DNA of 25,307 bases from Ilumatobacteraceae bacterium (lineage in GTDB: Bacteria > Actinomycetota > Acidimicrobiia > Acidimicrobiales > Ilumatobacteraceae), in assembly GCA_044233525.1 (NCBI GenBank), contig JBIIJW010000001.1, positions 1 through 25,307 on the forward strand. The letters are read 5' to 3'. A program made the translations under genes and the position numbers. A model generated the notes under the pieces. That model was not told the DNA's origin. It worked only from the letters and a program-made list of their open reading frames with translations, and ran no database searches. Shown here piece after piece: positions 234 to 4,925 of this stretch. How positions within the stretch are numbered: position 1 is the stretch's first letter; the number at the start of each line of letters is the position of its first letter.

Positions 234-1742
234 ATGTATGCAGCAATTGCATCTGCAACATTGGCGGGTGCGTCTGGATCACACATCATGGTGGAGGCTC
301 ACGTGGGGCCGGGTATTCCTGGGTTCACAGTCGTTGGGCTTCCCGATGAAGGATGCCGCGAATCACGAGACCGTGTTCGCGCAGCGATGTTGTCGAGTGG
401 GCTTGAGTGGCCCCAGCGCCGAATCACCATCAATGTGGCGGGAAGCGGCGAACGTCGCGGTGGCACTGGACTAGATCTTGCAATTGCAGTTGGCATTCTT
501 GTTGCGACGGGAATTGTGACATCCGAGTCTGTGCAGGACATCGCATTTCTCGCAGAGTTGGGGCTTGATGGCTCGCTTCGACCAACAACAGGAATCGCAC
601 CACTGGTTGCATCAGTCGAACATTTAGATGTCGTTGTGGCCGAGGGGTCCGTCCATGAGGCATCCATTGCCCAACCGCGCTCTGTTCGAGCGGTGTCAAC
701 GCTTGCTCAACTTGTTGATGTCTTGCATGGTGATGCGTCGTGGACGGTGATGGGCGATGTTCCTGTCGCAAGCGAATCTTGTGTCGACCTCCCCAACATG
801 TCGGATGTGCGGGGACAACCAATGGCTCGACTCGCACTTGAAGTTGCAGCCGCGGGAATGCATCACATGCTGATGATTGGACCTCCCGGTGCAGGGAAGT
901 CAATGTTGGCTCGTCGTTTGTCTGGATTACTTCCGCGTCTGTCACATGATCAGGCATTTCAAGTAGCCATGATTCGAAGTGCAGCGGGGCAATCAGTGGA
1001 CACGCGTCTCACAACAATTCCGCCGTATCGCGCACCGCACCACAGCATCTCAATGATGGGAATGGTGGGTGGTGGTACATCCAATGTTCGGCCTGGAGAA
1101 ATTTCACTGGCATCACACGGAGTTCTCTTTCTTGACGAGATGGGTGAATTTGCTCCCAGCGTTCTCGATGCACTGCGTCAACCATTAGAAGAACGAACGG
1201 TGCGTATCTCCCGTGCGCACGCATCAGTTGAGATGCCCGCTGATTTTCTGCTCGTTGCTGCAACGAATCCGTGCCCATGCGGAGTGGCAGTTCGCGCAAA
1301 TTGTGAATGTTCTGTCGTATCTCGTCAACGGTACTTGCGGCGCTTTAGCGGGCCACTTCTGGATCGTTTCGATATTCGAGTTCATCTCGCACGTCCCAGC
1401 ACGTCGGAGCTCACGGGAGCAACTCGCGGTGAATCAACTGAAGAGATCTCGGAGCGTGTGGCCTATGTGCATCAACGCGCATCCGAACGGCAAGGTTGCG
1501 TTAACGCACGAATCACCGGAGACATGTTGAATGAGGTTGCACCATTGTCTGAGTCTGCGCTGGCGGTTCTTCGTCAGAAGCTTGATGACGGAACATTGAC
1601 AGGTCGCGGTTATCACCGAGTGCGTCGTGTGGCGCGCACATTGGCAGATCTCAACGGTGAGTGGGGAGTGATTGATGAGAAGTGGGTTCAACTCGCTCTT
1701 CAATTCCGAGCCCGCTTGGAATCTGGGATTGTTCCCCGATGA
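234..1742 (+). CDS. comM: YifB/ComM family Mg-chelatase-like AAA+ ATPase
   Basis: N-terminal VGLPD..RESRDRVRAA; Walker A GPPGAGKS; PYRAPHHS; GEISLASHGVLFLDEMGEF; LRQPLEE; ATNPCPCG; SGPLLDRFD. SD-like AGGGGG precedes ATG 234. Confidence 0.93.
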   Translation: MYAAIASATLAGASGSHIMVEAHVGPGIPGFTVVGLPDEGCRESRDRVRAAMLSSGLEWPQRRITINVAGSGERRGGTGLDLAIAVGILVATGIVTSESVQDIAFLAELGLDGSLRPTTGIAPLVASVEHLDVVVAEGSVHEASIAQPRSVRAVSTLAQLVDVLHGDASWTVMGDVPVASESCVDLPNMSDVRGQPMARLALEVAAAGMHHMLMIGPPGAGKSMLARRLSGLLPRLSHDQAFQVAMIRSAAGQSVDTRLTTIPPYRAPHHSISMMGMVGGGTSNVRPGEISLASHGVLFLDEMGEFAPSVLDALRQPLEERTVRISRAHASVEMPADFLLVAATNPCPCGVAVRANCECSVVSRQRYLRRFSGPLLDRFDIRVHLARPSTSELTGATRGESTEEISERVAYVHQRASERQGCVNARITGDMLNEVAPLSESALAVLRQKLDDGTLTGRGYHRVRRVARTLADLNGEWGVIDEKWVQLALQFRARLESGIVPR

Positions 1743-2836
1743 CCCAATCGCTTCCTGAGTGGGCATATGCCGCAGCACTGGCGGCGTTGCCGTTGCAAAC
1801 GCATCATCGACTTCGCCGACTCCTCACAGAGGACAGCGCGCACAACACATGGCATGAACTCATGGGGACAACCAGAGCCCGCGCGGGTCTTGCGCTCGAG
1901 GTGTTGGCTACGTGGCGCAAGGTGGATGCTTGTTTTGTGGAGAGGGTGTACAACGACTGTTTAACCAGCAATATCTCGGTCATCACGCGCCACGATTCGG
2001 CCTACCCGCGACAACTCCTTCTCGATCCAGCTGCGCCCGCTGTGCTCTTTGTGCTTGGCTCACTTTCTTCAACTGCGGTCCGGCGGGTGGGCATTGTGGG
2101 GACGCGCGCCGCAACACAATTTGGAAAACATTTCGCCCAACAACTTGGACGAGAACTTTCCGACAATGGTGTGTGCGTTGTTTCTGGCTTAGCTCGGGGT
2201 ATTGATGTAGAGGCCCACTATGGCGCACTGCAATCAACAAGTGGTGCGGCGCCACTTGCCGTTGTCGCAAGCGGGCCAGACGTTGTGTATCCACGAGAGC
2301 ATCGCCAGATGTGGGAAGCCATGAAAACAAGTGGGGCCATCATCAGTGAATATCCGCCCCGTAGTCAGCCCGAGCCGTATCGATTTCCCCTTCGCAATCG
2401 AATTCTTGCTGGGCTGAGTGAAGTTCTCGTCGTGGTGGAGTCGCGATCAACCGGCGGGTCAATGTTGACGGTGAACGAGGCTATGAAACGTGGCATCACG
2501 GTTATGGCGGTGCCTGGTTCTCCACGAATGCGTCCGAGCGAAGGGACGAATGATTTGTTGCGCGATGGGTGTTCGCCTGTGACGAGTGTGGAGGATGTTC
2601 TTATGGCATTAGGACTAGATACGCAGCGAATTCATGGCACTGCAGAAGTGCGTGCACCACTTTCTTCAGAGCATCTACGCATCATCGATTCCATGAATGG
2701 AGAACCTCGGACAACTGATGAAGTCTCGCTTCTGACTGGCTTGCCGCTCATAGATTGTGCAGTCTCCTTGGGTCGTTTGGAAGAACAAGGATGGGTGGCG
2801 CACAGTGATGGTTGGTGGGAGGCACTCACTCGGTAG
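1739..2836 (+). CDS. dprA: DNA-processing protein DprA (Smf)
   Basis: YP..L, VGIVGTRAAT, VVSGLARGIDVEAH, ISEYPP, FPLRNRILAGLS, VVVES..GGS, AVPGS motifs and a C-terminal winged helix. Start placed at ATG 1739 (ATGA overlap with the comM stop) rather than the track's 1682. Confidence 0.93.
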   Translation: MTQSLPEWAYAAALAALPLQTHHRLRRLLTEDSAHNTWHELMGTTRARAGLALEVLATWRKVDACFVERVYNDCLTSNISVITRHDSAYPRQLLLDPAAPAVLFVLGSLSSTAVRRVGIVGTRAATQFGKHFAQQLGRELSDNGVCVVSGLARGIDVEAHYGALQSTSGAAPLAVVASGPDVVYPREHRQMWEAMKTSGAIISEYPPRSQPEPYRFPLRNRILAGLSEVLVVVESRSTGGSMLTVNEAMKRGITVMAVPGSPRMRPSEGTNDLLRDGCSPVTSVEDVLMALGLDTQRIHGTAEVRAPLSSEHLRIIDSMNGEPRTTDEVSLLTGLPLIDCAVSLGRLEEQGWVAHSDGWWEALTR

Positions 2837-2859
2837 CTCGTGAGAGATACCGTAGAGAC

Positions 2860-4176
2860 ATGAGCGGTGGAGTGAAGTCTCGTGTGAAGCAGGCTGACCG
2901 CTCCGTCTTTGAGGTGGACAAGTTTGTCCGTTCGTTGAGTTGCGGAGATGTGCTTCGCGAAACCCGACGAAGCGATTTGTCTCATGCCTGTGAAGATTTT
3001 CTGGCTCTCGGGGTGCAGGCTCCGCGTGATGTCACATCTGAACATGTGGATCTGTATGTTCGCAGTCTTGAGCAACGCGGCTATTCAGTAGAGACAGTTG
3101 AACAGAGACTTGGAACAGTGTCGTCGTACTTCACATGGTTTCTTCGCACCCATAAACCTGGTCGAGGCGATGAACCATTTCTTCATCCATCGAAAAAAAT
3201 CTTGCCGGCTCATTCTGCATCGTGTTCACAATGTGGTTCTGAATCATCAACCTCATTGAAAGGAGCATGCACTGTACGTGATGGACGCCTTTCAAATTGG
3301 ATGCCGTCAACATTTGAAGATTCCTTAACTGCATCTGCGGCCAATACTCGCGCTGCTTATCGTCGCGACATTGAACTGTTTGCTGAATGGCTCCTTGATG
3401 AAGATCAAGAGATGGCGCCATGTGACGTCACCAAGGAGATTGTTCGCGGATACTTGGCTCACTTGCATGAGTGTGGCGCAACGTCGCGAACTGTTGCTCG
3501 CCGAATCGCTGCGCTTCGTCGCTATTTCTTATGGGCTATTCGCAAGAACATTGCTTCTATCGATCCCACTGAAGCCGTTCATACACCAAAGACCAAGGGC
3601 CGTCTACCGCGACCACTTGATGAGAAAACGGTGGTGTCGCTCATTACAAGCGAAGATCCAGATGCCCCGCAGTGGCGGCGAGCACGTGATCGTGCCATCT
3701 TGGAAATTCTCTACGGCAGTGGCTTGCGTGTCTCCGAGGTGTGCTCACTCCATCTACAAAGCGCGTCATCAGATGGTGCGACATTGCGGGTGATGGGAAA
3801 GGGATCGAAAGAACGAATTGTTCCCCTCAGCGCGCCCGCACGTGAAGCGGTGGGCGAATGGTTGTCGGTTCGACGAGAGGTTGCTGATGAATCGTCAGGC
3901 AATGCCTTGTTCTTAAGTGCACGTGGTAAACCCGTTGGACGTCGCGATGTTGCACGTTTGTTAGATGAGGCATGCGCTCGAGCGGGAATTAGTGGCGGAA
4001 CTCATCCGCACGCCTTGCGCCACTCATTTGCAACTCATCTCATGGACAACGGCGCCGATACACGTTCTATCCAAGAGTTACTTGGCCATAGCGATGCTGC
4101 AACAACTCAGCGGTATACGCACGTGAGTAAAGAGCGACTTCGGGTGGCATATACAGAAACGCATCCCCGAGCATGA
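2860..4176 (+). CDS. xerC: XerC/XerD-family tyrosine recombinase with an extra N-terminal core-binding-like domain
   Basis: Catalytic set intact: GLRVSE (R), GKGSKER (K), HALRHSFATH (H-x-x-R), LGH, TQRYTH (Y). The canonical protein would begin near ATG 3301, but the frame is open from 2812. ATG 2860 is chosen as start; this is uncertain. The xerC rather than xerD call rests on position after dprA. Confidence 0.85.
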   Translation: MSGGVKSRVKQADRSVFEVDKFVRSLSCGDVLRETRRSDLSHACEDFLALGVQAPRDVTSEHVDLYVRSLEQRGYSVETVEQRLGTVSSYFTWFLRTHKPGRGDEPFLHPSKKILPAHSASCSQCGSESSTSLKGACTVRDGRLSNWMPSTFEDSLTASAANTRAAYRRDIELFAEWLLDEDQEMAPCDVTKEIVRGYLAHLHECGATSRTVARRIAALRRYFLWAIRKNIASIDPTEAVHTPKTKGRLPRPLDEKTVVSLITSEDPDAPQWRRARDRAILEILYGSGLRVSEVCSLHLQSASSDGATLRVMGKGSKERIVPLSAPAREAVGEWLSVRREVADESSGNALFLSARGKPVGRRDVARLLDEACARAGISGGTHPHALRHSFATHLMDNGADTRSIQELLGHSDAATTQRYTHVSKERLRVAYTETHPRA

Positions 4177-4925
4177 ACGCACGCCCTATCCGTTACACCA
4201 TTGAGACAGCGTGGGAAGCCTGGCATTCGTCGCAAGAAGTCACTGCGCGTGAGTGGTTGGTGGTTCACTATGCGTCTCTCGTGAAGTTCGTGGCAGGTCG
4301 TTTGGCGGCAGGTTTACCAAAGAGTGTTGACACGGGCGATCTCGTGAGTGCCGGAGTGTTCGGGCTGATGAATGCGATCGACAAATTTGATCCGTCGCAA
4401 GGGTTCAAATTTGAAACATATGCGGTGCCGCGCATTCGAGGTGCCATCTTGGACGGATTGCGTGCACTCGATTGGGTCCCTCGCTCTGTTCGTTCTCGTT
4501 CGCGTTCAGTGCAAGATGCCATCGCGCAACTTGAACACGAATTGGGTCGCACTCCCACAGACGAAGAAATCGCCACCGAACTGAAAATCACCGTTGAAGA
4601 GTTGGAGAAGTGGCTTGCTGATATTGCAGCTGGCTCTGTTGGTCCGTTAGATCACGTTGCAATGGACCGCGCACCTGCTGAAGCGGATGCACATCTTCAA
4701 CCTGGCCGTGCGATGGAAGATGGAGAACTGCGCGATGCCATGCGTGCAGAGATTTCCCGCCTTCCAGAGCGAGAGCAAGCAATTTTGATTCTGTATTACG
4801 AAGACGGATTAACACTGGCGGAAATTGGTGACGCGCTGGGTGTGACGGAGAGTCGAGTGTCGCAAATTCACACAAAGGCTGTGTTGCAATTACGTTCGCG
4901 ACTTGCCGCGGCAGGAATGGGATAG
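4173..4925 (+). CDS. whiG: FliA/WhiG family RNA polymerase sigma factor (sigma-28)
   Basis: LVKFVAGRL, DLVSAGVFGL..AIDKFDP, FETYAVPRIRGAILDGLRALDWVPRSVR, and region 4 LTLAEIG..LGVTESRVSQIHTKA. ATGA overlap with the xerC stop. Confidence 0.88.
   Translation: MNARPIRYTIETAWEAWHSSQEVTAREWLVVHYASLVKFVAGRLAAGLPKSVDTGDLVSAGVFGLMNAIDKFDPSQGFKFETYAVPRIRGAILDGLRALDWVPRSVRSRSRSVQDAIAQLEHELGRTPTDEEIATELKITVEELEKWLADIAAGSVGPLDHVAMDRAPAEADAHLQPGRAMEDGELRDAMRAEISRLPEREQAILILYYEDGLTLAEIGDALGVTESRVSQIHTKAVLQLRSRLAAAGMG

Follow-up and report, generated by a model that had tools for sequence, protein, structure and literature searches.

A degenerate second core-binding domain and a conserved His/Cys3 segment at the N-terminus of XerC in a genus of freshwater Ilumatobacteraceae

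Background

What does an additional 147-residue module do at the N-terminus of a housekeeping XerC recombinase? The question is raised by the xerC gene in a 25,307-nt stretch of DNA from an Ilumatobacteraceae bacterium (positions 1 to 25,307 of contig JBIIJW010000001.1, assembly GCA_044233525.1; the whole stretch is called the window below). Tyrosine recombinases are divided into simple enzymes, which have a core-binding (CB) and a catalytic (CAT) domain and include Xer, and complex enzymes with a further domain at the N-terminus, the arm-binding (AB) domain (PMC8138268). XerC and XerD, which resolve chromosome dimers, are textbook simple tyrosine recombinases, and their control is thought to be external, via FtsK or accessory proteins. 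The protein encoded in the window is an Xer recombinase by its catalytic domain, its genomic context and its partners, and it departs from the two-domain rule of CB plus CAT. An earlier reading of the letters of the window (the original prediction) had placed a second CB in front of the usual one, giving a CB-CB-CAT architecture at the housekeeping dprA-xerC-sigma factor locus. This architecture, in one protein, is borne out by Pfam matches, profile searches, the predicted fold and orthologues.

The xerC frame extends from stop to stop over positions 2812-4176 and holds a gene of 438 codons beginning with the ATG at 2860 (P0001). The gene and its parts, all on the + strand, are as follows:

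2860..4176, +, xerC: 438 codons plus stop, encoding a tail, CB1, a zinc-type linker, CB2 and CAT
2899..3156, +, CB1: residues 14-99, the additional core-binding domain (SAM-like, four helices), degenerate in sequence and assigned by hidden Markov model (HMM), AlphaFold2 and structural alignment
3157..3300, +, basic linker with a putative HCCC zinc knuckle: residues 100-147, assigned by conservation among 28 sequences
3301..3579, +, CB2: canonical XerC core-binding domain, residues 148-240, assigned by PF02899 and a canonical-CB HMM
3616..4134, +, catalytic domain (CAT): residues 253-425, assigned by PF00589

Results and discussion

A second core-binding fold precedes the XerC core

A BLASTP comparison of residues 1-147 with residues 148-438 aligned residues 53-96 to residues 185-228 (positions 3016-3147 and 3412-3543) without gaps, at 17 of 44 identities and with an E-value of 4e-7. 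This is the same pair of segments that the original prediction had aligned by hand (3019-3147 and 3415-3543), and the echo that it had seen further upstream, FVRSLS..RSD in one copy and FEDSLT..RRD in the other, aligns as well. In Pfam, PF13495 matched residues 43-97 with E 1.6e-5 and 25.6 bits, a little short of the 27-bit cut-off in a scan of the extension by itself. We also trained an HMM of canonical CBs on 20 copies of CB2, 28 CBs of sister-genus XerC proteins and four CBs of XerD, leaving CB1 out of the training set. It matched residues 18-97 (E 3.4e-11) over its positions 5-85, that is, nearly its full length.

An AlphaFold2 model of residues 1-147, built on an alignment of 28 sequences, had a predicted local distance difference test score (pLDDT) of 83.5 overall and of 83-95 over residues 11-100, with helices at residues 14-25, 30-49, 60-72 and 77-97. 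The model was compared exhaustively with 48,161 PDB representatives (VIA-align). Solved CBs scored highest, among them 3nrw (Z 12.7), XerD (1a0p; Z 12.2, root mean square deviation 1.8 over 86 residues) and lambda Int (Z 12.0). All of the top 24 matches were CBs of the tyrosine-recombinase type (SAM-like), and the first unrelated fold appeared at Z 6.8. Foldseek searches of the module against PDB, AFDB clusters and the ESM Atlas returned mostly CB domains and integrases, with the weak E-values to be expected of a short helical domain. As modelled, residues 14-99 are a complete CB fold that is degenerate in sequence. An extra CB, for which the original prediction had suggested an HMM scan and structure prediction, was thus found by both, as a CB match and as a CB fold.

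In an alignment of 72 domains, seven columns hold Arg or Lys in at least 80% of the 52 canonical CBs; CB1 is basic at one of the seven and has lost the other six. An Arg present in all 52 canonical CBs is an invariant Gln82 in CB1, and another Arg has become an invariant Glu78. The net charge of helix D is -0.07 in CB1, compared with +6.6 in CB2. Glu71, Glu78, Val80, Gln82 and Trp93 of CB1 are invariant, and the last helix, which contacts DNA in canonical CBs, carries an invariant acidic and polar face, Y-[ST]-V-E-T-V-E-Q-R, in place of the lost arginines. The N-terminal tail in front of CB1 is basic (charge +1.5).

The linker carries an invariant His/Cys3 motif

The original prediction described an extension of about 145 codons that was no random read-through. 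Its non-random character was upheld; the length is 147 codons, and the last 48 residues are no plain linker, since they carry an invariant H-x3-C-x2-C-x11-19-C motif that was absent from the earlier account. In residues 100-147, Pro110, His118, Cys122, Cys125, Cys137, Arg140, Arg143 and Trp147 are invariant in all 28 sequences, down to 34% identity, with the overall pattern H-x3-C-x2-C-x(11-19)-C-x2-R-x2-R-x3-W. These three cysteines are the only ones of the segment. The four ligand-type residues are encoded at 3211-3213 (His118), 3223-3225 (Cys122), 3232-3234 (Cys125) and 3268-3270 (Cys137), and they stay fixed while the number of residues separating Cys125 from Cys137 ranges from 11 to 19. 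From this pattern of conservation, His118, Cys122, Cys125 and Cys137 can be described as a putative four-ligand zinc knuckle.

Searches of Pfam, NCBIfam, PDB, AFDB clusters and the ESM Atlas gave no family and no fold for residues 100-147, and the compact His/Cys3 stretch could be a zinc motif not yet described. In the model of the full-length protein the linker has a pLDDT of 76-92. Its mean net charge is +4.5. CB2 has a mean charge of +3.4 in this genus, well below the +7.9 of the CBs in sister-genus XerC proteins, a difference that the charge of the linker roughly covers.

The extension is kept in frame, under selection and with a conserved start

The extension was present in 22 of 24 sampled genomes of the genus, with 34-71% identity and always in frame with XerC; the two genomes in which no match to the extension was found are 57% and 71% complete. 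The original prediction had suggested a search for relatives at the same locus, and these 22 genomes share the two-CB XerC, with orthologues and assemblies alike showing one gene. In 20 genomes of the genus the xerC orthologues are a single open frame encoding 441-484 residues (608 in one case), and the 438-residue protein itself has been called by other gene callers on other assemblies.

Indels in the extension are all multiples of three in the orthologue alignment. Among unsaturated pairs, the ratio of non-synonymous to synonymous substitution rates (dN/dS) was 0.03-0.20 for CB1, compared with 0.01-0.08 for CB2 and CAT. For the linker, unsaturated pairs gave 0.07-0.37, with 0.07-0.18 for the five closest. 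The mean pairwise identity is 42-44% in the extension and 65-75% in the core.

Contigs from three further lake metagenome runs, belonging to separate studies, span positions 2600-4300 with two to three substitutions and no indel; their near-identity to the window means that each is a possible source of it. An assembly artefact or two separate genes can be excluded by these three indel-free spanning contigs together with the single frame of the orthologues, G022 excepted. In that genome (L016, C46:3400-7400) the frame changes inside the CB2 region and not at the domain junction, so that residues 3-210 and 196-438 lie in different frames; it reflects a pseudogene or else a mistake made in sequencing or assembling the metagenome-assembled genome. 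A metatranscriptome contig of 166 nt matches positions 3177-3342 exactly, which attests to the presence of RNA or DNA only.

Translation starting only at position 3301, which the original prediction had named as an outcome that would speak against it, fails on comparison. A Met at this position (Met148) occurs in 2 of 20 orthologues, and the XerC proteins of sister genera (25 genes) start 1-5 residues before a conserved Trp equivalent to Trp147, the Trp being residue 3-6 of XerC there. Position 3301 comes after Trp147, and a protein begun at this point would lack the ancestral XerC N-terminus; such an internal start is excluded by the rarity of Met148 and by the position of the sister-genus N-termini. 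An ATG is found at the aligned position of 2860 in 30 of 30 named Ilumatobacteraceae loci (L105-L134), with a TACC[GT]T hexamer 6-7 nt in front of it. The hexamer is conserved inside an otherwise variable sequence upstream of the xerC ATG. A TANNNT hexamer at such a distance is typical of leaderless transcripts in Actinobacteria. We infer that TACC[GT]T is the -10 element of a leaderless mRNA, which would give xerC a promoter separate from that of dprA.

The neighbouring features of the window are as follows:

234-1742, comM-like gene, upstream of dprA
1682..2836, +, dprA: PF02481, E 1.2e-62; 23 nt between its stop codon and the ATG of xerC
2848..2853, +, TACCGT hexamer: resembles the -10 element of leaderless transcripts; the ATG of xerC follows after 6 nt
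4173..4925, +, gene for a WhiG/FliA-type factor of the sigma-70 family, comprising regions 2, 3 and 4: start codon overlapping the stop codon of xerC

The genes are closely packed. The xerC stop and the start of the sigma factor gene share the four nucleotides ATGA at 4173-4176, and the gap between dprA and xerC is only 23 nt. The order comM-dprA-xerC-sigma is kept across the family, with dprA syntenic in 28 and the sigma factor gene in 24 of 29 sister genera.

The rest of the dimer-resolution system is canonical

Residues 148-438 are a standard XerC, consisting of a CB and an intact catalytic domain. Pfam assigns PF02899 to residues 160-229 (E 8e-17) and PF00589 to residues 253-425 (E 9e-47), and the canonical-CB HMM matches CB2 with E 4.6e-37. 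The catalytic R-K-H-R-H pentad (R290, K314/K317, H384, R387 and H410) and the nucleophile Y419 are invariant in 30 sequences, in agreement with the intact catalytic domain described in the original prediction. Foldseek matches to XerA and XerD had E-values of 1e-10 to 1e-11. In NCBIfam the protein scores above the cut-off of NF001399 (305.6; cut-off 279) and below those of the XerC equivalog TIGR02224 (319.1; cut-off 335.15) and the XerD equivalog (304; cut-off 329.6).

Four of five genomes checked encode two tyrosine recombinases and no others, namely the long XerC and one XerD of 307-314 residues, and the fifth has one further weak match. XerD keeps the usual XerD N-terminal motif. The gamma domain of FtsK is present in 23 of 24 genomes of the genus, which rules out that the module makes up for an absent FtsK gamma.

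A dif candidate, TACGC[CT]CATAA-T[GC]TCCG-TTATGTAAT, was found in 53 of 61 genomes of the genus, as a single match in 52 of them; the reversed control gave zero matches. The form of the sequence in the genus is TACGCCCATAA-TGTCCG-TTATGTAATT, 28 bp long with a central region of 6 bp, and the copy in the genome of the window lies at G000:C35:4257-4284 (L095:1498-1525). Upstream lies a conserved gene whose stop codon overlaps the XerC arm. In three genomes dif and xerD are on one contig, 40-60 kb apart.

We profiled 60 nt on each side of dif in 30 genomes of the genus (L065, L074-L102) and found no conserved accessory motif beyond the 28-bp core. On the left, dif is flanked by a conserved gene's 3' end, where conservation looked periodic by eye, in steps of 3 nt. 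In three genomes with a non-syntenic left flank, conservation falls to background within about 3 nt of dif and nothing is shared beyond. The right flank contains a conserved CCTAAGGT element, followed a few nucleotides later by the ATG of the next gene (L095:1560-1600; open reading frame 1595-2845), and the conservation on this side is explained by the promoter-like element and start codon of this neighbour. The layout of CCTAAGGT and ATG is a second example of a leaderless-type arrangement like that of the hexamer upstream of xerC. The rest of the dimer-resolution system, comprising CB2, CAT, XerD, FtsK gamma and one 28-bp dif, is shown by these results to be canonical.

The module is restricted to one genus and was probably gained once

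The hosts are freshwater Ilumatobacteraceae of the acIV lineage in the class Acidimicrobiia, and they are represented by metagenome-assembled genomes only, from lakes including Mendota, Erken, Baikal, Pavin and Biwa. Genomes of the genus measure 1.3-2.5 Mb and belong to abundant, streamlined lake Actinobacteria. Several genomes of the clade (L112, L119, L122, L127) carry the name Bifidobacterium (breve or sp.) in public records, apparently by mislabelling.

At the syntenic dprA-xerC-sigma locus of 29 sister genera no second CB was found, each having a single CB. The distance from the end of the dprA match to the start of the XerC core is about 60-140 nt in these genera, compared with about 465 nt in the genus of the window. 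Across the order, 300 genomes gave no full-length match outside the genus. When 1.84 billion representative proteins were searched with the profile, one full-length representative (P0022, 445 residues) and four fragments were returned, all from the same clade, and the remaining matches cover the CB part only. The His/Cys motif was absent from all seven non-clade matches that were inspected for coverage of the linker region.

In a tree of CB domains, the CB1 sequences form one clade (SH-aLRT support 95) whose internal order mirrors that of CB2, which argues for a single gain before the radiation of the genus, followed by vertical descent. The CB1 profile scores CBs of the XerC type with E-values of 1e-15 to 1e-7 and those of the XerD of the genus with only 1e-6 to 1e-3, and being nearer to the XerC type it points to a XerC-like source. 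The original prediction had spoken of a tandem duplicate. The XerC-like nature of CB1 agrees with this; an origin from the gene's own CB2 is plausible from the sequence comparisons and goes no further than that, as the long branch of CB1 falls apart from CB2 and from the XerC CBs of the family. A search of the rest of the genome found no donor for the module, the matches being the module itself and CB2 only. Taken together, the comparative sequence data show a module that is, by every sign they offer, real, translated, under purifying selection, vertically inherited and restricted to one lineage.

Possible functions of the module

The module is most likely regulatory or architectural. We propose, with moderate confidence, that a normal XerCD-dif core is combined here with a putative zinc knuckle that would contact DNA and a CB1 that would serve regulation or protein contacts. 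The XerC of the genus ancestor would have gained the 147-residue N-terminal module, fused directly to the old N-terminus at Trp147, and CB2 and CAT would carry out ordinary XerCD recombination at dif. CB1 would not be a canonical DNA reader, because six of the seven basic positions are lost and the charge of helix D is about zero, and its acidic and polar face may be a protein-contact or regulatory surface. Candidate roles for CB1 are the control of synapsis or inter-subunit contacts, control of XerC via XerD or FtsK, and masking of CB2. The basic zinc knuckle, situated just N-terminal of the first helix of CB2, may add non-specific contacts to the DNA backbone beside the XerC arm of dif.

Several points weigh against this proposal. 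CB1 retains the near-invariant Arg33 and Arg36 in helix B. In Cre and XerD, helix B is the second CB helix to reach into the major groove, so that with these two arginines CB1 could still bind DNA in a non-canonical way. In most genomes the left flank of dif is coding, which could mask a short accessory site. We infer zinc binding by the His/Cys3 residues from their conserved sequence, and compensation of the lower CB2 charge by the linker is only a correlation. As for transcripts, the RNA support is weak, being a single short contig that is silent on the translation start.

A possible but less probable alternative is that the module is an accessory, arm-like DNA-binding unit, in which CB1 and the zinc knuckle would recognise an extended dif flank or a distant site and make XerC heterobivalent or widen its footprint. 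In function it would be comparable to the AB domain of lambda-type integrases, though made from a copy of a CB. CB folds are DNA-binding modules, and beside Arg33 and Arg36 CB1 keeps Arg83 and Arg96; the tail and the linker are both basic, the N-terminal position mirrors that of AB domains, and metagenomic tyrosine recombinases with two to four tandem CBs exist, so that CB arrays appear to be a recurrent design. The AB domain of lambda-type integrases is a small beta-sheet fold. CB1, in contrast, is all-helical, unlike known AB domains, and invariant Glu and Gln stand where canonical basic positions have been lost. The absence of a motif beyond the dif core in the 30 genomes, with the right-flank conservation otherwise explained, also argues against an accessory site. 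The original prediction's suggestion of an extended or accessory site that would be read by the extra CB is accordingly weakened by the one basic position left out of seven, the nearly uncharged helix D and the plain 28-bp dif.

The linker allows a different idea, namely a redox- or metal-gated switch in which Cys122-x2-Cys125, His118 and Cys137 would sense oxidation or zinc, shift the packing of CB1 against CB2 and couple dimer resolution to the state of the cell in sunlit, oxic lake water. The hosts are lake-water bacteria, and a CxxC with two more ligand-type residues is invariant in a segment that averages about 44% identity. The invariant set of four ligands is equally consistent with structural zinc, however, no thioredoxin-like fold was detected, and the switch is speculation from the motif by itself; we regard it as unlikely. 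Far less probable still is a mis-called start or a nearly neutral leftover, with XerC beginning near 3301 and the frame upstream being read-through or a decaying partial duplication. The ATG at 3301, present in the genome of the window and in one other, and the faster evolution of the extension relative to the core would fit such a view. Against it, the frame stays open and indels stay multiples of three although extensions may be only 34% identical, dN/dS is far below 1, and thirteen residues besides Met1, including the His/Cys3 set, are invariant. Met148 is missing from 18 of the 20 orthologues, a start there would remove the conserved N-terminal Trp of XerC, and the upstream ATG and hexamer are kept in all 30 genomes.

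Comparison with known recombinases and CB proteins

XerC and XerD of other bacteria, for example E. coli XerD (1a0p), resemble the system described here in catalytic residues, the dprA-xerC locus, the XerD partner, FtsK gamma and dif, and they are without the 147-residue N-terminal module with its degenerate CB and His/Cys3 motif. Lambda Int and the Int proteins of Tn916 and Tn1549 also have an extra N-terminal domain before CB and CAT, in a position that suits the control of synapsis or directionality. In the lake genus, by contrast, the extra domain is a four-helix CB, and no arm-type sites were found around dif; its XerC is not a heterobivalent integrase of the lambda type. Its xerC is a vertically inherited housekeeping gene and not part of a mobile element, unlike the genes of lambda-type integrases.

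The CB fold has been reused outside catalysis in E. coli FliZ (PMC3367168). The structural matches of CB1 include SPbeta MrpR (8a0a, Z 9.2), phi3T SroF (9rd5, Z 10.7) and, at Z 6.0, the plant ALOG domain (8p5q). The ALOG domain is a CB-like helical bundle with a zinc ribbon. In all four of these DNA-binding or regulatory proteins a CB fold is reused, as in CB1, and they are separate proteins or lack an active catalytic domain, whereas the extra CB of the lake genus is fused in front of a complete XerC that looks active from its sequence. The Cys/His motif of the lake-genus XerC also differs in its position from the ALOG type, as it follows helix 4 and is not inserted within the bundle.

Repeated CB domains as such are not unique to the XerC of the lake genus. 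Four uncharacterised metagenomic recombinases (P0115, P0124, P0103 and P0134) likewise have two to four tandem CBs followed by CAT. They differ in that their sequences are unrelated to the module, with only generic CB similarity to its profile (E 1e-5 or weaker), are by eye without the His/Cys3 motif, and are not housekeeping Xer genes. P0115 (L135:5001-6368) adjoins a second integrase among hypothetical genes, a context like that of a mobile element. In the open-access literature we found nothing on tandem CBs, on zinc motifs in Xer proteins, on XerC in Acidimicrobiia or on this architecture.

Implications

Retention of the module in a genome of 1.3-2.5 Mb argues that it does something. A bolder view, which we consider doubtful at present, is that this is the first chromosomal Xer with a built-in accessory control domain, which would bind a second DNA element or a partner, or sense zinc or redox state, and so gate dimer resolution beside or instead of the FtsK-XerD trigger. 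If this were true, a housekeeping enzyme would have arrived independently, by way of a CB, at the logic of the arm domain in phage integrases. The hosts are uncultured, and study of the protein will need heterologous expression. If the module is regulatory, CB1 would be a natural example of a CB repurposed after the loss of its DNA-reading residues, and if it regulates synapsis or catalysis, these lake bacteria would have a new way of controlling chromosome dimer resolution.

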